Assembly: GCA_035489715.1 (NCBI GenBank)
Contig: DATHAP010000021.1
Location: 694 to 64,693, forward strand
From: Actinomycetes bacterium
Lineage (GTDB): Bacteria > Actinomycetota > Actinomycetes > JACCUZ01
Length of the DNA stretch: 64,000 nucleotides
Direction of reading: 5' to 3'
Shown here: in pieces, positions 10,503-48,003 of the stretch
Position numbering within the stretch: position 1 is the first letter of the stretch
How the letters are laid out: every line of letters starts with the position of its first letter
Notes under the pieces: generated by a model
Told to the model about the DNA's origin: nothing
What the model saw: the letters and a program-made list of their open reading frames with translations, nothing else
Databases searched by the model: none
Position numbers and translations under genes: made by a program

Positions 10503-10901
10503 TCAGGAGCAGCGGGTGCAGGTGCCGAAGACCTCGACCGTGTGCTCGACGGAGGAGAAGCCGTGCTCGGCGGCGACCTTCTCCGCCCACCGCTCGACCG
10601 CCGGCCCGTCCACCTCCACGGTGCTCCCGCAGGACCGGCAGACCAGGTGGTGGTGGTGCCGGTCGCTGCTGCAGCGACGGTAGACCGACTCGCCGTCCGG
10701 CTGCCGCATCACGTCCACCTCGCCGCTTCCGGCCATCGCCTGCAGCGCGCGGTAGACCGTGGTCAGCCCGATCCGGGTGCCGGCGGCGCGCAACCGCGCG
10801 TGCACGTCCTGCGCGCTGCGGAACGCGTCGTCGCGGGCGAGCTCCTCGCGGACCGCGATCCGCTGGCGGGTGTCGCTCACGACGCTGCCACCACGAACCA
10901 C
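10503..10901 (-). CDS. zur: Fur-family zinc uptake regulator
   Basis: Strong similarity pattern to actinobacterial Zur (RSAQDVHARLRAAGTRIGLTTVYRALQAMA...DRHHHHLVCRSCG...HTVEVFGTCTRC). Overlaps the zupT stop; the likely GTG start forms a GTGA overlap. Confidence 0.85.
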   Translation of the reverse strand: MVRGGSVVSDTRQRIAVREELARDDAFRSAQDVHARLRAAGTRIGLTTVYRALQAMAGSGEVDVMRQPDGESVYRRCSSDRHHHHLVCRSCGSTVEVDGPAVERWAEKVAAEHGFSSVEHTVEVFGTCTRCS

Positions 10902-11605: not shown

Positions 11606-11625
11606 GACCGCGAGCCTAGGGCATA

Positions 11626-11640
11626 TGACAACCGTTGTCA
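11626..11640. promoter_or_regulatory. Zur-box-like palindrome TGACAAC-c-GTTGTCA in the zupT/zur divergent promoter
   Basis: Perfect 7-1-7 inverted repeat 21 bp upstream of the zupT start. Its architecture matches actinobacterial Zur boxes. Confidence 0.5.
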
Positions 11641-11665
11641 GTTTCAGTCCGGGTACGCTGCGTGC

Positions 11666-11971
11666 ATGCTCGCCGTGACGCGCCTTCGTCTTCCGGTCCA
11701 CGTCCCCGACGGCGGTCCCGCTGATGCCCGGGGCACCGAGACGCTCCTGCTCGGCGTCCTGGACCTGCTCGCGGCCCGGCCGGGCTTCGTGAGCGGGCGG
11801 GTCGGGCGGTCGGTCGACCAGCCGGCGCTGCTCCTGCTCGTCACCGAGTGGTCGGGGGCGGGCGCCTACCGACGGGCGCTGTCCGGCTACGACGTGAAGG
11901 TCGCCTTCGCCGACCTGATGGCGTACGTCGACAACGAGCCCAGCGCGTTCGAGGTCGTGGCCGCGCGCTGA
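11666..11971 (+). CDS. Small ABM-like (antibiotic biosynthesis monooxygenase / Dabb-type) hypothetical protein
   Basis: 101-aa ORF divergent from zupT. Contains LLLVTEWSGAGAYRRALSGYDVKVAFADL, reminiscent of ABM domain proteins. Confidence 0.4.
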   Translation: MLAVTRLRLPVHVPDGGPADARGTETLLLGVLDLLAARPGFVSGRVGRSVDQPALLLLVTEWSGAGAYRRALSGYDVKVAFADLMAYVDNEPSAFEVVAAR

Positions 11972-12029: not shown

Positions 12030-13439
12030 ATGGAGGCCATCGTGGCCAAGAGCAGCTCGGGCAGCAGCCGCAACGACGCGGTCATCAGCCTCAGCAAGCG
12101 TCGGGGGTTCGTCTACCCCAGCAGCGAGATCTACGGGGGCACCCGCTCCGCCTGGGACTACGGCCCGCTGGGCGTCGAGCTCAAGGAGAACGTCCGCAGT
12201 CAGTGGTGGCGCACGATGGTGCAGGGCCGCGACGACGTCGTGGGCCTGGACTCCGCGGTGATCCTGGCGCGTGATGTGTGGGTGGCCTCGGGCCACGTCG
12301 ACACGTTCACCGACCCGCTCTCGGAGTGCCAGTCGTGCCACAAGCGGTTCCGGGCCGACCACCTCGAGGAGGCCTACGAGGCGAAGAAGGGCGCGCCGCC
12401 GCCGAACGGGCTGGCTGACGTCAACTGCCCCAACTGCGGGGTGAAGGGCGCGTTCACCGAGCCGCGCCAGTTCTCCGGCCTGCTCAAGACCTACCTCGGC
12501 CCGGTGGAGAGCGACGAGGGGCTGCACTACCTGCGGCCCGAGACCGCGCAGGGCATCTTCGTCAACTTCCTCAACGTCATGACGTCGGCGCGCAAGAAGC
12601 CGCCCTTCGGCATCGCGCAGACCGGCAAGTCGTTCCGCAACGAGATCACGCCGGGCAACTTCATCTTCCGCACCCGCGAGTTCGAGCAGATGGAGATGGA
12701 GTTCTTCGTCGAGCCGGGGACCGACGAGAAGTGGCACGAGTACTGGCTGCAGGAGCGTTGGCGCTGGTACACCGACCTGGGCCTGCGCGAGGACAACCTC
12801 CGCTTCTACGAGCACCCCAAGGAGAAGCTCTCCCACTACTCGAAGCGCACGGTCGACATCGAGTACCGCTTCAACTTCGGCGGCAAGGAGTTCGACGAGC
12901 TCGAGGGCATCGCAAACCGCACCGACTTCGACCTGACGGCGCACGCCAAGCACTCCGGGGCAGAGCTCAACTACTTCGACCAGGAGAAGGGCGAGCGCTG
13001 GACGCCGTACGTCGTCGAGCCCGCAGCGGGGCTGACCCGTGCGACGCTCGCCTTCCTGCTCGACGCCTACACCGAGGACGAGGCCCCCAACGCCAAGGGG
13101 GTGATGGAGAAGCGCACCGTGCTGCGGCTGGACCCGCGGCTGGCGCCGGTCAAGGTGGCCGTGCTGCCGCTCTCGCGCAACGCCGACCTGACGCCTAAGG
13201 CCAAGGACCTGGCCGCGACGCTGCGTCAGTCGTGGAACGTCGAGTTCGACGACGCGGGCGCGATCGGCCGCCGCTACCGCCGGCAGGACGAGGTCGGGAC
13301 GCCGTTCTGCGTGACCGTGGACTTCGAGACCCTCGACGACCAGGCGGTCACGGTGCGCGAGCGGGACTCGATGAAGCAGGAGCGCATCGGTCTCGACGCG
13401 GTGCCCGGCTGGCTGGCCCAGCGCCTGCTCGGCTGCTGA
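12030..13439 (+). CDS. glyS: Glycine--tRNA ligase (class II, dimeric GlyQS type)
   Basis: 469-aa ORF with class II aaRS motifs ([25 protein letters not shown]) and the anticodon-binding C-terminus. Confidence 0.92.
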
Positions 13440-41913: not shown

Positions 41914-41987
41914 GGGGCGGTAGCTCAGCCGGTTAGAGCAGGGGACTCATAATCCCTCGGTCCCGGGTTCGAGTCCCGGCCGCCCCA
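41914..41987 (+). tRNA. tRNA-Met (anticodon CAT), elongator type (G1:C72 paired)
   Basis: Acceptor GGGGCGG/CCGCCCC, anticodon loop CTCATAA, T-arm CCGGG-TTCGAGT-CCCGG. Confidence 0.85.
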
Positions 41988-43403
41988 CATGGCCTGGCCT
42001 GGTCGCTTGTTCGTTTGGAGATCGTGAGGGCTGTCCGGAATGTCCCCAGGTGGGCACGCGGTGGGCACATGGTTGTGCCCATCAACTCGGGTGGTGGCCC
42101 TCGGGACCAGTGCCGCGGCGGCCTCGGCGGCGGCCTGCGCGACCTGTGGCATCACGCTGAGGTAGATGTCACGAGTGATCTGGGTGGTGGTGTGCCCGAG
42201 CTGCTCGGACACCACCTTGACGTCGACCCCCGCGGTGAGCGCGAGCGTCGCGGCGACGTGGCGTAAGTCGTGCAGCCGGATGGCGGGCATGTCGTGCCGG
42301 GTGACGAGCCGGTCGAAGCGCTGGGAGACTCCGTTGGGGGTCAGCGCCCGGCCGTCCTCGTGGGTGAACACGAGACCGGTCTCGGTCCAGCCCGCCCCCC
42401 AGCGCAGTCGCAGCTCGTGCTGAGCCTTGCGGTGCCGGCGAAGCACCGCGACGGTAACCGGGTCGAGGGCAACGGTGCGCTCGCTCGCCTCGCTCTTCGG
42501 TCCGTCCCAGTCCCGCTGCGACCCGGCACGGACGGTCGCGGACGCGGCATCCAGGTCGACGTCGACCCAGGACAGCCAGACCGCCTCGGATCGCCGTAGG
42601 CCGCGGAACACGAGCAGGTGCCACAGCGCGTAGAGCCGGTCATAGGCGACGGCGTCGAGGAACGCGCCCGTCTGCGTCGGTGTCCACACCATCACCGGGG
42701 AGGGCCGCCGGCCGGTGCTGCGCCACTGGACGACGCGCTCGTCAGTCCAGACAAGCGCCCGGGGCTTGCGGACCCGCTCGAGCTCGACGTAGAGCACCGG
42801 GTTGTGCGCGATCTTGCGCCGTTTCACGGCGGCGTTAAGGGCGCTGCGTGCAGTGGCGTGCACGGTGCGGATGCGGTTCGGGGTGAGCGGGCGACGTGCC
42901 TGCTTGGTGTCGGTGCGCACGGCCAACAGGCGCGTCAGCATCGCGGATGGCTTGCCTGGGCCGGGTCGGCCGATCAGCCGCATCGCGGCGTAGAGCTCCT
43001 CGAATTCGGTGTCGCGCAGGTCGGCCAGCCGGACATGCCCGAGGCCCGGCTTCAGGTAGAGCTCGATGTGGTGCTCGTAGGACGTCCGGGTCGAGGCCTT
43101 CAAGGCCAGCTTTCCGGCCATCCAGTCATCCAAGAACTGCGCGAAGGTCAGCCCGCGGTCTCTCTCGATGTGGGTGCCCTTGTGCACCTGGTCCAGGACC
43201 GCCACCATCGCGGCCTCGGCGTCACGGCGGGATTCGAACGGCCCCACCTTGACCTGACGACGACGACCGTCCACGCCACGGGGTGCGTCGTAGCGAAACC
43301 ACCAGCTGCCGTGGCCACGCTGCCCTCGCCGAGGGCAGCGTGCACCCAACTGTCGACCGGACGCGTCGCGGCAGCCGCATCGCTGCATCGTCGACCCGCG
43401 CAT
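41925..43403 (-). mobile_element. Tyrosine-type site-specific integrase (phage/ICE integrase); its 3' end overlaps the tRNA-Met gene
   Basis: N-terminus M..QRCGCRDASGRQLGARCP...GSWWFRYDAP typical of actinobacterial integrases. C-terminal catalytic R...HxxR...Y region (LHDLRHVAATLAL...TRDIYL). The ORF has no stop until inside the tRNA-Met sequence. Confidence 0.85.
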
Positions 43404-43434: not shown

Positions 43435-43674
43435 CTAGCCTGCGGACGGCGGTAGGGGAAGCGCGGTCGCCGGTTCGGTGGACAGTCCGAGCAACTCGAT
43501 CAGGTACGCGGTAGGGATCTTGATCTGGTGTCCGACGCGTAGGACCGGTGTCGGGAAGTGGTCGGTGCGGATGAGCTCGTAGGCGACGGTGCGACCTATG
43601 CCGAGCACCTCGGCGGCGGTGACCACGTCGACAACGGCTGGGAGGCGGCGCACCTCGGTGGCAGTCATCGTCAT
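43435..43674 (-). CDS. Excisionase/AlpA-family helix-turn-helix DNA-binding protein
   Basis: 79 aa with LPAVVDVVTAAEVLGIGRTVAYELIRTDHFP. Located next to the integrase gene. Confidence 0.7.
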   Translation of the reverse strand: MTMTATEVRRLPAVVDVVTAAEVLGIGRTVAYELIRTDHFPTPVLRVGHQIKIPTAYLIELLGLSTEPATALPLPPSAG

Positions 43675-44020: not shown

Positions 44021-44308
44021 TCATCGCCTTGGCCTACATGGAGCCAGGTGTCGGTAACGTTGGCGGGCGCCTTGCCTGGTGATGCCGACTGCGTCGGCCA
44101 CCACGGGCCAATTCTGCCCTTGTTCGAGGAGCCGGCGGATCTCGTCTTCGATCTCAGCGTGAAGCTCGCGTTGGCGTTCTACCGGTCGCCTGAGCTGATC
44201 CGCAGCCGTCGATCGCCCGGACCGCGGCAGCAGCGGGAGCGGTGGAGCAGAGACCGCCGAGGCAGCGGCCGGCTCCAAGAGGGTTGTTTGGCGACTTCGG
44301 GCGGTCAC
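44021..44308 (-). CDS. Small HTH DNA-binding protein (sigma-70 region 4-like)
   Basis: 95 aa with the C-terminal NWPVVADAVGITRQGARQRY helix-turn-helix. Confidence 0.45.
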   Translation of the reverse strand: MTARSRQTTLLEPAAASAVSAPPLPLLPRSGRSTAADQLRRPVERQRELHAEIEDEIRRLLEQGQNWPVVADAVGITRQGARQRYRHLAPCRPRR

Positions 44309-44505
44309 TATCCGCGGGCTCTCCGCTGCCTTGATCGCAAGTTGTGCGCGTTCGGCTCGTCGCGTGGCTTGGCCCGACTCTTGCGTCCCATGGATTCCTC
44401 GTCATGATCGTCGCTCGACTCCGTGGGTTTATGTGCGCCAGAAGTGCCCGAGCCAAGGCGTGTAGCGAGCGCTCGTCGGAGGGGCGCAAGCGGCCCCGAG
44501 GACCC

Positions 44506-44523
44506 TGACAACAACTGTTGTCA
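44506..44523. promoter_or_regulatory. Inverted repeat TGACAAC-aact-GTTGTCA sharing its 7-mer half-sites with the zupT Zur-box-like site
   Basis: Read directly from the sequence. A second IR (CACTCG...CGAGTG) lies immediately downstream. Confidence 0.35.
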
Positions 44524-44725
44524 CTCGTGATGCCAGACGAGTGAGCTGACCTGGTATCGATCTTGTCGGGTCACTTGCCTCGTGCGGTGAGGCAGTCCTC
44601 GAGACGATCGGGAGGGTGATCGGACGCCTGGACGAGAAGGGTCGACGGGGACCTCTGCCCGTGGGATCGAGGGCCGGTGAACGGGACGAGTTCGAAGGCC
44701 TCCCGTTCAGCTAGTGGTGACCTCC

Positions 44726-45922
44726 TCAGGGACCCCCGGGTACCTCAGGTGCTGGCGTGCGTGCTCGTGCTCTGCCGGCCGCCAGCGCCGCAAGTCCGGT
44801 GGTTATCGGAACTGCCGCGATGAGCCCGAGGGTGCCGACGGCGCTGCGCACGATCTCCTGGGCGATCAGCTGGTCGGACAGTGTCCGGCCGAGGGACTCG
44901 CTGCCGGCGAGGATGAGCACCAGGAGGGGCAGGGAGGCGCCCGCGTAGGCGAGCACGATGGTGTTGACGACCGATGCGATGTGGGCGCGCCCGACCCTGA
45001 TCGCGCCGCGGTAGAGCTTGGAGGGTGGGTAACTGGGGTTGGCGCGGGCCAGTTCGTCGACGGTGGCTGTCTGGGTGACGGTGACGTCGTCGAGGACGCC
45101 GAGCGCACCGATGATGATGCCGGCCAGCAGCAGGCCCCGGGTGTCGATGGAGTAGACCTCGCCGACGTAGGCCGTCGCCTCGTCCGCGACGCCGGTGAGT
45201 GAGGTCGCTTTGACGGCCGCGGCTGCCAGGACGCCGGTCAGTGCCAGGCTTGCGAGGGTGCCCAGGACGGCGACGGTCGTGGAGCGGGTCACACCGTGCG
45301 TGAGGTACAGAACGGTCAGCATGATGAATGCGGAGCCGACGACGGCCACCAGAAGGGGTGGCTTGCCGTCGAGGATCGCGGGAACCACGAAGCGCAGCAG
45401 GACGGCGAACGTGATCGCCAGGCCCGCGAGCGCGGCGAGGCCGCGCCACCGGCCGAAAGCGACGATGGCCAATGCGAACGCGGCGCAGATGACCGAGAGC
45501 TGAGTTCCGCGCTGCTGGTCGACGACCTGGTATCGCAGCTTCGCCGGCGCGCTGCGGGTGTAGGTGAGCGTCACGTCGTCACCGACGCTGACATCGGGCG
45601 CAGCTGCCCCCGCGGGAAGGTTCGCTGTCACCGTCCGCCGGTCTCCCAGCTCGACCTCGGCGGTGCCGCAGCCGGCGGGCCGTGCCTGCCCGTTTCCAGT
45701 GTTGCCCGTCGAACCGTCGGGACACGGGACCTCGTGGATCGAGGAAATGCTGCCGCTGAGGACCCGATAGTCGGCGGCCGGCGCAATGCCAGGCTGTGGC
45801 CCTGGCCACAGCAGGGCCATCATCGAGATGACCACGGCAAGTACCCCCACCAGTCCGACGACCACGAGTGCCGTTGCGCGACGGGTGTGGTGCGGCTGCG
45901 GATGGGTGTGCCTGCCGGGCAT
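44726..45922 (-). CDS. YibE/F family membrane protein
   Basis: 398 aa with multiple TM helices and YibE/F-like conserved stretches (GALGVLDDVTVTQ, VNTIVLAYAGASLP). Confidence 0.7.
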   Translation of the reverse strand: MPGRHTHPQPHHTRRATALVVVGLVGVLAVVISMMALLWPGPQPGIAPAADYRVLSGSISSIHEVPCPDGSTGNTGNGQARPAGCGTAEVELGDRRTVTANLPAGAAAPDVSVGDDVTLTYTRSAPAKLRYQVVDQQRGTQLSVICAAFALAIVAFGRWRGLAALAGLAITFAVLLRFVVPAILDGKPPLLVAVVGSAFIMLTVLYLTHGVTRSTTVAVLGTLASLALTGVLAAAAVKATSLTGVADEATAYVGEVYSIDTRGLLLAGIIIGALGVLDDVTVTQTATVDELARANPSYPPSKLYRGAIRVGRAHIASVVNTIVLAYAGASLPLLVLILAGSESLGRTLSDQLIAQEIVRSAVGTLGLIAAVPITTGLAALAAGRARARTPAPEVPGGP

Positions 45923-46131
45923 GGGTGGCTGCCTCCATCAACGGCGGGGTGAAGATTCAACGCTAGTGGCGCTGGTCGCGCCACCCGGGCGAGGGCGGCC
46001 CGCAACCCGCCAAAGGCGGGTCCCCGGACTCCGCAGGAACGGTCCGGCACCAGGACGCGCGGGCCTGCCGGCCGGGTGCGATCTGGTCGGCCCTGATCGA
46101 ACCCGGTGGGCGTTTCGGCGAAAGCCGTCCG

Positions 46132-47415
46132 TCAGAGGCGCTGCCCGGCAGGCAGCCGCCGCGCCCATCGCCACAGCGCCACGTCGTAACCGCCCTTCAC
46201 GACACCCGCGACCAGCAACGGCAGACCCAACGCGACCTGCTGGAGCAACCCCCCGACCAGGGGGCCCAGTGGCCGCACCGAGTAGCGAGCAGCGTTGGTC
46301 ACCGCCGCCACCGATGTCCGCTCGGACGGTTCGACAACCCGCATCACCAGAGCTTGCCGGGTCGGCACGTCCATGTTCGACAGGCTGGTCCGCGCGAGCA
46401 GCAGCAGCACCGCGACCGGGAAGGTCGGGGCGAACGCGACCGCGGCCAGCAGCAGGTTGCTCGGCAGGTGGGTGCCGACCATCGTGGGCACCAGCCCGAC
46501 GCGGTCCGCCAGCCGCGGCGCGACCCACACGGACACCGCCTGCAGCACCGAGGTCGTGAAGAACAGGGCACCGAGCGCGCCCACGGGGACGCCGTATCGC
46601 TGGCTCAGGTAGTAGGCCAGGAAGCTCGCGGTCACCAGGCCGCCGCCGGCGGCGTCGACGGCGAACAGGGTGGCCAGCCGCCGGACCCGGGCCCGGGACG
46701 GGCCCAGCCGAGACCAGCCGCGCACCGCCGCGCCGACCCCCGATGTCGGCGCGATCGAGGCCGGACCCGGCAGATCGCCCGCGTCGGGCGGCGGCTCGAC
46801 CGCCCGGGTCAGCCGCGACGCCAACACCGCACCGGCCAGTCCCACCGGGACCAGCACCAGGAACGGCCACGACGACGACGCAGGCACCCCGAGCCGGGCC
46901 GGCACGGTGGCGGCCAGCGCGCCGGCCGCGCCGCACAGCAAGGCGACCGCGTTGTATACGCCGTAGACGCGGGCCCCGGACCGGCCGGCGGCACCGGCGT
47001 GCTCGTTGGCCAGCATCGACTGCTCCAGTGTGGTGGCCGGCCCGTTGTCGACCACGTCGGTCGACAACAGCCCGGTCAGCGCGACCAAGAGCAGCAGCCA
47101 CGTCATGACCTCGCGCCCGGCAGAGCCCCCGACCCCGTCGGCGACCGAGCCTCCGACCGCGACCATGAGCCCGGCGCACGCCAGCCCCACGAACAGCAGC
47201 AGGTAGCAGCGGCGGCGCCCGACCCGGTCCGCGACCGCGCCTACCACGAGGGAGGCGCCCGCGGTCCCGGCGACCAGCGCACCCAGCAGCACGCCGGTCC
47301 GCACCGTGGAGACGTCCCGGGCCGCGAGCAGCGCGCCGAGCAGAACCGCAGTGCACCCATACCCGCCCCCCCGCAGGCCCTGCGCGGCCACGATGCGCCG
47401 CGCGTCACGGCTCAT
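46132..47415 (-). CDS. MFS transporter
   Basis: 12 predicted TM helices. MFS-like motif region (VADRVGRRR) after TM2. The start may be M173 or M185 of the ORF. Confidence 0.7.
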   Translation of the reverse strand: MSRDARRIVAAQGLRGGGYGCTAVLLGALLAARDVSTVRTGVLLGALVAGTAGASLVVGAVADRVGRRRCYLLLFVGLACAGLMVAVGGSVADGVGGSAGREVMTWLLLLVALTGLLSTDVVDNGPATTLEQSMLANEHAGAAGRSGARVYGVYNAVALLCGAAGALAATVPARLGVPASSSWPFLVLVPVGLAGAVLASRLTRAVEPPPDAGDLPGPASIAPTSGVGAAVRGWSRLGPSRARVRRLATLFAVDAAGGGLVTASFLAYYLSQRYGVPVGALGALFFTTSVLQAVSVWVAPRLADRVGLVPTMVGTHLPSNLLLAAVAFAPTFPVAVLLLLARTSLSNMDVPTRQALVMRVVEPSERTSVAAVTNAARYSVRPLGPLVGGLLQQVALGLPLLVAGVVKGGYDVALWRWARRLPAGQRL

Positions 47416-47454
47416 CCGGACTTGACCAGTCGCCTGCGACCACGGTTGCATGTG

Positions 47455-48003
47455 ACCATGGTTGCACCGGAAGGCGGTCCCGGCGAGTGGGTGCTGCTCA
47501 CCTACCGGCTGCCGCGCGAGCCATCCACACCCCGCAGCGCCGTCTGGCGCCGGCTGCGCCGACTCGGCGTCGCCCAGCTCAGCGACGGACTGGTCGCGCT
47601 GCCCGCCGATGCTCGCACCCGCGAGCAGCTCGAGTGGATCGCCGACCAGGTCCGCGAAGCCGACGGGACCGCGGCCGTGTGGCTGGCTCGCCCGGCCTCG
47701 GCCGCGCACGAGCGGGAGATCGCCGTGGACATGGCAGCTGCCCGTGCCGGCGAGTACGTTCCGCTGCGCGAGCACGCGGAACGGGTCCACGCCGACGTGT
47801 CGCTCTCCGAGCCCGACCGGGCCCGCGCCGTCCGCCGACTGCGCGCGGATCTGCACCGCATCCGCCGGCGTGACTACTTCCCACCTCCCGAACGCGACCT
47901 GGCGCTGGCCGCCATCGACGCGCTCGCCCGCAGCGTCGCCACCCCCACCGGCGCTGCGACCCGCCACGCCGCGCTGCCTGTCGGCGAGGGGCAGCGACGA
48001 TGA
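47455..48003 (+). CDS. ChrB-like protein, N-terminal domain (chromate resistance regulator family)
   Basis: WVLLTYRLPREPSTPRSAVWRRLRRLGVAQLSDGLVALP matches the ChrB N-terminal signature. Divergent from the MFS gene. Confidence 0.55.
   Translation, partial: TMVAPEGGPGEWVLLTYRLPREPSTPRSAVWRRLRRLGVAQLSDGLVALPADARTREQLEWIADQVREADGTAAVWLARPASAAHEREIAVDMAAARAGEYVPLREHAERVHADVSLSEPDRARAVRRLRADLHRIRRRDYFPPPERDLALAAIDALARSVATPTGAATRHAALPVGEGQRR

Follow-up and report, generated by a model that had tools for sequence, protein, structure and literature searches.

The perfect 7-1-7 palindrome TGACAACCGTTGTCA (site 1) lying upstream of a ZIP-family importer gene and a zur gene is probably the Zur operator of this ZIP-zur operon, and a second palindrome with identical 7-mer half-sites (site 2) probably falls outside the zinc circuit as the target of a protein encoded by an integrative element. 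The window, that is, the whole stretch of DNA that we analyzed, spans 64,000 nucleotides and has a G+C content of 71.5%. Both palindromes had been pointed out in a sequence-only reading and were found at the coordinates it gave; the 21-bp distance of site 1 from the importer start, the GTGA overlap and the divergent start at 11666 proved equally correct. The features discussed here are collected in Table 1.

Table 1. Coordinates of the features of the ZIP-zur locus and of the integrative element in the window.
Feature	Position	Strand	Basis or remark
zur, Fur-family, 125 aa	10503..10880	-	Pfam FUR (PF01475) 8e-29; PDB Zur matches
ZIP-family metal (zinc) importer, 242 aa	10877..11605	-	Pfam Zip 2e-21
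Predicted -10 hexamer TAGGCT, ZIP-zur promoter	11613..11618	-	TAnnnT 7 nt before ATG
Predicted Zur box TGACAACCGTTGTCA, 7-1-7 (site 1)	11626..11640		Motif fit and positional conservation in 8 orthologous loci
Predicted -10 hexamer TACGCT, ABM-like gene	11654..11659	+	TAnnnT 6 nt before ATG
Divergent ABM-like small gene, 101 aa	11666..11971	+	Weak Pfam ABM match, 0.0079
tRNA-Met (CAT), element integration site	41914..41988	+	tRNA prediction
Tyrosine integrase gene	41925..43403	-	3' end overlaps tRNA-Met
Excisionase-like HTH_17 gene	43435..43674	-	Domain match
Island HTH gene, family 123-133 aa, start MGRKSRAK	44021..44391	-	phrog_686 'HTH DNA binding protein' 1.2e-10
Site 2, TGACAAC-AACT-GTTGTCA	44506..44523		8-2-8 in the window; 7-4-7 arms conserved in relatives
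Second inverted repeat TCACTCGT-N8-ACGAGTGA	44521..44544		Adjoins site 2
YibE/F gene	44726-45922	-	Own hairpin 44678-44709 directly after stop codon

The importer protein scored 77 bits with Pfam Zip, against a cut-off of 35, and 80 bits with the NCBIfam model of ZupT (NF003243), under its equivalog cut-off of 252; on these scores we classify it as a member of the ZIP family and not as an equivalog of E. coli ZupT. The protein database holds thousands of homologues, many of them labelled ZIP/ZupT by JGI, and a search of the PDB with the ZIP protein gave no sequence-level match. The GTG of zur and the TGA of the importer gene overlap as GTGA (10877-10880). Because the two genes overlap in one operon, importer and repressor are predicted to be made from a single autoregulated transcript. 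Upstream, 21 nt separate the proximal edge of the palindrome from the A of the ZIP ATG (11605, minus strand). The small divergent gene has only a weak ABM match of its own, and its orthologues in relatives match PF03992; glyS starts downstream of it at 12030 (plus strand), and the GDPD and uppS genes lie beyond zur.

Site 1 stands out in the window both by its rarity and by its fit to known Zur boxes. A search for TGACAAC-N0-8-GTTGTCA gave two matches in 64 kb (11626-11640 and 44506-44523), compared to none in 100 dinucleotide-preserving shuffles. The TGACAAC 7-mer itself occurs six times, four of them within sites 1 and 2, and among the 155 perfect inverted repeats of the window with 7-bp arms and a spacer of 0-8 nt, none but these two have A/T-rich arms. 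All 10 specified positions of the published actinobacterial Zur box TGaNAANNNTTNtCA are matched by site 1 (PMC5472717). The signature of Zur boxes consists of G:C pairs at positions 2, 8 and 14, which are read by R53 of S. coelicolor Zur (ScZur; PMC9371925), and G2, C8 and C14 are all present. Site 1 is also the sole match to TGANAANNNTTNTCA in 64 kb when up to one mismatch is allowed. It is identical at 13 of 15 positions to TGATAACGGTTATCA, a C. glutamicum site verified by EMSA (PMC2823685), and fits the mycobacterial consensus at 14 of 15 (PMC7174638). Besides the 17-genome actinobacterial motif taaTGaNAANNNTTNtCANta, the literature offers the motif tGaNNatSatNNtCa obtained by ChIP for S. 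coelicolor Zur (PMC5472717), and site 1 fits this one as well. The canonical box TGAAAATGATTTTCA had no match in the window with up to three mismatches; judging by its letters, the local Zur-box candidate is a G+C-richer variant of it.

Phylogenetic footprinting gave congruent results. The set consisted of eight contigs (L081-L087, L107) with ZIP proteins 80-88% identical to that of the window; all are from one clade of metagenomic relatives, which restricts how deep the footprint reaches. These close relatives were found through the protein database, where many ZIP homologues have 78-97% identity; a search of genome contigs with the ZIP protein yielded only homologues of ~54% identity, mostly from Streptomyces. 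In all eight relatives the ZIP gene is followed by a Fur-family gene of 123-128 aa that either has a 4-nt overlap with the end of the ZIP gene or begins just beyond its stop codon, by a few nt. The order glyS-(ABM)-ZIP-Fur-GDPD-uppS-recO is kept in nearly all of them, and the divergent ABM gene, with a spacer of ~61 bp, in five. The distance between box and ZIP start codon is unchanged in 8/8 relatives while the surrounding spacer diverges, and the box reads TGACAACGGTTTTCA, TGAAAACCGTTGTCG, TGAAAATGGTTGTCG, TGAAAACCGTTGTCA, TGAAAACGGTTGTCA and similar, with the consensus TGAAAACsGTTGTCr. Ten of the 17 invariant columns in the promoter alignment (97 nt) fall inside the 15-bp box, and most of the remainder belong to the start codon and to the fixed letters (T, A, T) of a TAnnnT hexamer. 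When scored with a position weight matrix (PWM) built from seven orthologous sites, the window site being left out, site 1 was the top match in the window at 28.2 bits (window mean -41, 99.9th percentile -3.6). No Zur box was found upstream of the ~54%-identical Streptomyces ZIP homologues, so control by Zur is not universal among ZIP genes; the sequences suggest that the Streptomyces genes are under a different mode of control. As a separate observation, these homologues (L002-L048) share another motif, gatcGGATAGCAAGGGCAC-ATG, about 20 nt upstream of the start codon.

The protein encoded next to the box is, by its sequence relationships, a clear Zur orthologue of the solved S. coelicolor and M. 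tuberculosis proteins. Its top PDB matches were S. coelicolor Zur (3MWM, 1.5e-49) and M. tuberculosis Zur/FurB (2O03, 2.6e-45), and it also matched the Zur-RNAP-DNA complexes (7VO0 and others). Other members of the Fur family reached at best 2e-17 (Fur), 2e-13 (PerR) and 1e-11 (Nur) in the same search, leaving a gap of about 30 orders of magnitude to ScZur and M. tuberculosis Zur. Alignment to the PDB Zur proteins showed a complete ligand pattern D/C/HHHH/CxxC/E/H/CxxC, with the three zinc sites (D, C, H, H), (four Cys) and (H, H, E, H), whose ligand sets are described in PMC2823685, aligned and identical. The recognition helix GLTTVYRxLQ is intact and includes the Arg equivalent to ScZur R53, the residue of that helix that reads the G:C pairs of the box (PMC9371925); R11 of ScZur, which contacts the minor groove, is not conserved and is Ser in this regulator.

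It is very unlikely, in our judgment, that site 1 serves a regulator other than Zur, such as a Fur paralogue or a TetR/ArsR-type protein, or is a palindrome arisen by chance. What such a reading has on its side is that the regulator scored above the cut-off of no NCBIfam equivalog. A chance origin is excluded by the empty shuffles and by the position of the box being conserved in eight related loci; a different regulator is opposed by the fit to experimentally defined actinobacterial Zur boxes and by the adjacent gene encoding a Zur orthologue. Nur, by comparison, recognizes a 6-5-6 motif (PMC2691836).

The geometry of the intergenic region is likewise consistent with a Zur operator. A TAnnnT hexamer placed just before a start codon is a signature of leaderless actinobacterial transcripts. 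The ZIP start codon is preceded by such a hexamer, at a distance of 6-7 nt, in the window and 8/8 relatives; the ABM start codon of the relatives is preceded, again at 6-7 nt, by TAGGCT, TAGGGT or TACGGT. From this we infer that the ZIP-zur operon and the ABM-like gene appear to be transcribed from leaderless promoters arranged back to back, with only 60 bp between them. The end of the box is 7-9 nt from the predicted -10 hexamer on the ZIP side and 12-13 nt on the ABM side, which would place the box at about -35 to -21 of the predicted ZIP-zur promoter and at about -40 to -26 of the ABM promoter. A scan with the sigma-70 consensus gave no match at site 1 or site 2, as one would expect of actinobacterial promoters. 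A Zur box commonly lies across the -35 element and works by occlusion (PMC6103462). Since the box would cover the -35/spacer region of both predicted promoters, repression of both divergent units by Zn-Zur is the likeliest mechanism.

We thus propose the following circuit. When zinc is sufficient, Zn-loaded Zur dimers would bind the 7-1-7 palindrome, covering the -35/spacer region of the two predicted leaderless promoters, and the ZIP-importer/zur operon would be off; zur would be autoregulated through its co-transcription with the importer gene. The divergent ABM-like gene would probably be repressed from the same box. When zinc is scarce, apo-Zur would leave the operator, and the importer and more Zur would be produced. 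The notion of a Zur box in front of a coupled ZIP-zur pair, already proposed from the sequence, is therefore upheld as a prediction by motif fit, regulator orthology, promoter geometry and footprinting. Its extension to the divergent ORF is probable: the ABM-like gene is probably a second target of the box, given that the arrangement is kept in five of the eight relatives.

Compared with known systems, site 1 is best described as an ordinary, well-conserved predicted Zur operator, a well-supported assignment of a well-known and unsurprising kind. The 15-bp 7-1-7 layout TGAnAAnnnTTnTCA is that of the boxes of S. coelicolor znuA/zitB, the M. tuberculosis Zur regulon and C. glutamicum znuB2/znuC2, with which site 1 also shares the G:C pairs at positions 2, 8 and 14 and, as predicted, the overlap with a zinc-uptake promoter; the Zur of the window has the same recognition helix as the cognate Zur of those boxes. 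The differences are that the importer in the window is a ZIP-family permease whereas theirs is ZnuABC, that its half-sites are G+C-richer (TGACAAC compared to TGAAAAT), and that, unlike in the known cases, one box would serve two back-to-back, apparently leaderless promoters. We take the placement of zur, distal in its operon and near glyS and uppS, to be like that in mycobacterial smtB-zur, C. glutamicum znr-zur and S. coelicolor znuCB-zur. In better-studied actinobacteria the glyS/uppS neighborhood presumably holds an ArsR-type sensor gene or znu genes, where here it holds a ZIP permease. The upstream partner of zur is a zinc importer gene with a 4-nt overlap in the window and an ArsR-type sensor gene in smtB-zur. 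In M. smegmatis, the zur-containing operon is repressed by Zur itself (PMC7174638). Direct control of a ZIP importer by Zur, predicted here, is found for zupT of Cupriavidus metallidurans (PMC6103462, Table 3), which differs in belonging to another phylum, in having another Zur-box sequence and in that zupT is not co-transcribed with zur.

We then consider site 2, TGACAACAACTGTTGTCA at 44506-44523, some 33 kb from site 1. The arms and the 7-4-7 spacing under which it had been described are there, although in the window it is strictly an 8-2-8 repeat, TGACAACA-AC-TGTTGTCA. Related elements (L092-L103) were recovered via the protein database and one metagenome search; the arms are kept across them while the spacer varies (CAGTTG, CGGTTG, CGATCG). 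Together with the adjoining inverted repeat, site 2 forms an invariant block of ~38 nt (44506-44543), over which the alignment of the related elements has 26 consecutive invariant columns. On the strand of the HTH gene the block reads ACTC(G/A)TCTGGCATCACGAG-TGACAAC-N4-GTTGTC(A/G), and it is found in all L092-L103 elements that reach that position. The sequence ACTCGTCTGGCATCACGAG-TGACAAC-N4-GTTGTCA is invariant where the HTH proteins are 42-79% identical and the flanks diverge. In L103, whose HTH protein is 42% identical, the block is kept, the rest of the intergenic DNA is unalignable, and a GATC spacer turns site 2 into a perfect 18-bp palindrome. In the window, site 2 lies in a stretch of ~330 bp without codon-position signal, between the 3' end of YibE/F and the HTH gene, with the block ~115 bp upstream of the HTH start codon. 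The exact 18-mer had four matches in viral contigs, in two unrelated phage contexts of ~60% G+C and with no similarity in the flanks, and we dismissed them as chance.

The suggestion that Zur might also bind site 2 is not supported. Here the half-sites are 3 bp further apart than in a 7-1-7 box, so the dimer geometry of such a box does not fit, and the repeat belongs to a ~38-nt block that is specific to the element. It could still be argued that host Zur binds through a pseudo-box, TGACAACAGTTGTTG, thereby tying expression of HTH-xis-int to zinc status. The shifted 7-1-7 register CAACAACTGTTGTCA within site 2 is indeed the second-best PWM match in the window (13.9 bits), and the same matrix gave 19.3 bits for the L098 variant, compared to 17.5 for the verified C. 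glutamicum site; moreover, ScZur binds boxes with mutated signature G:C pairs with a Kd only 3-7-fold weaker (PMC9371925). Against this, there is no G:C pair at position 14 of the pseudo-box nor, in the window variant, at position 8. The Zur-like register is not conserved in homologues either: L103 keeps the 7-4-7 arms while its best Zur register drops to 9.4 bits, and what is conserved is the symmetric 7-4-7 repeat plus 19 further nt, not a 7-1-7 register. As the orthologous Zur boxes mostly have TGAAAAC and not TGACAAC, the identity of the 7-mers at sites 1 and 2 is best read as a coincidence. We therefore regard binding of Zur to site 2 as improbable, weak cross-binding being conceivable; membership of site 2 in the zinc circuit is not supported by the sequences compared, which give no sign of a role in zinc regulation.

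The genes to the left of site 2 point instead to an integrative element. The last 21 codons of the integrase gene are antisense to tRNA-Met, and the sequences of L095 and the window part company precisely in the anticodon loop (41946), 2.6 kb from the block; this divergence probably marks the crossover point of the integrase, with L095 representing another junction state (attP or other context). The alternative arm of L095, 63 nt long, does not occur in the window. Between 42100 and 64000 we found no attR copy of the 3' segment of tRNA-Met, neither as a repeat of at least 14 nt nor as a significant blastn match, and the site 2 region was rejected as an attR of the tRNA-Met integrase, there being no repeat of the tRNA 3' half in that interval. 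The gene called HTH in the earlier reading has its true start at ATG 44391 and is frameshifted in the window: its homologues (P0121-P0129) have 123-133 aa and begin MGRKSRAK, and relative to the 123-aa P0121 the frame is lost after nine codons (MGRKSRAKP), apparently by a 1-nt deletion. This is either a pseudogene reflecting real decay or a sequencing error; L092-L094 encode an intact HTH protein. No relatives of the HTH protein were found in viral contigs.

Site 2 had also been placed inside the island. More exactly, it bounds the conserved int-xis-HTH module on the outside, and the gene content to its right resembles that of an ordinary chromosome. From these comparisons we read site 2 as a cis element conserved in a small tRNA-Met integrative element, possibly one in decay, and as most likely bound by an element-encoded protein, either as the operator of HTH-xis-int or as a recombination-associated site. 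The alternative that the island's own HTH regulator recognizes site 2 is thus compatible with the sequence evidence, and we rank the operator first and a recombination or insertion hot spot second. The distance of ~115 bp to the HTH start codon counts against the operator, being far for a simple repressor. The arrangement is one we take to be like that of pSAM2-type int-xis modules, with an integrase over a tRNA 3' end, an HTH_17 excisionase, a small HTH regulator and an upstream palindrome; it differs from pSAM2-type elements in that the window has no replication or transfer genes and that the HTH family has no characterized member.

Further observations concern the surroundings of the element. 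To the right of the block the window carries YibE/F, MFS, ChrB_C, metallophosphoesterase, BNR protein, PAP2 and sulfate/molybdate-type ABC transporter genes, and int and xis were the only mobility genes seen in 43000-64000. The G+C content falls from ~0.72-0.78 to 0.64-0.70 to the right of the tRNA genes, except in 46000-48000, where it is 0.75. A type IB topoisomerase gene (PF01028, PF21338; 40304-41911, minus strand) adjoins the tRNA-Asn/tRNA-Met pair.

The second-ranked explanation, that site 2 and the adjacent repeat form a recombination site or an insertion hot spot, be it a module boundary or a target of IS110-family elements, seems to us possible but doubtful. Homology of the 99.6%-identical contigs L092 and L093 to the window stops at 44542, the outer edge of the repeat, and the ends of six contigs fall no more than about 40 nt from the block. 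Beyond it there are at least three types of flank: YibE/F (window, L094, L099); the flank of L098, where the N-domain of an IS110-family transposase (PF01548, 2.8e-15) lies ~220 nt away, with related flanks in L092 and L097; and DUF7711, DUF7712 and DUF2243 genes (L101, L102). The 8-N8-8 layout also resembles the core site of a tyrosine recombinase. These points are countered by the crossover of the integrase mapping to the tRNA anticodon loop, 2.6 kb away, and by the other end having neither the tRNA-Met 3' half nor the block spacer in a second copy. In addition, the first ~25 nt of the differing flanks are still weakly similar, which speaks for mosaic divergence and against a sharp insertion junction.

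Two details of these flanks were noted besides. In L098 (3-338, minus strand) the spacing of the IS110 N-domain would fit the non-coding end of an IS110 element, and in L102 an ORF further upstream (429-863) has a C-terminus that looks, by eye, like that of an IS110 transposase.

Site 2, as a pair of neighboring hairpins past the stop codon of YibE/F, could also be taken for a terminator or a structured RNA, a reading we find scarcely credible. The fold of site 2 is no better than that of shuffled sequences (z = -1.14), it has no T-tract, and no terminator was predicted there; a better hairpin (44678-44709) stands directly after the YibE/F stop codon, and the block is conserved in elements that lack YibE/F. 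An Rfam search of the window and the related loci gave only tRNAs. An element-encoded protein remains, for us, the most likely ligand of site 2. Bolder roles for the block, as a dedicated recombination or targeting site of small tRNA-Met elements, perhaps a target of IS110 (bridge-RNA-type) elements, or as a device for zinc sensing through the pseudo-Zur box, appear unlikely. The ~38-nt block and its association with variable junctions retain a modest interest.

There is a methodological caution here: half-sites that recur unchanged at a second place in a genome, in this case within a mobile element, need not mean the same regulator; spacing and conservation across genomes tell the two palindromes apart. 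For the organism and its relatives, site 1 provides a comparatively validated, predicted Zur operator in a poorly studied clade of high-G+C soil actinobacteria, and the clade-specific box TGAAAACsGTTGTCr can be used for regulon prediction. It also suggests that the ABM-like protein, so far uncharacterized, may be a member of the zinc-starvation response and a previously unnoted candidate of the Zur regulon.
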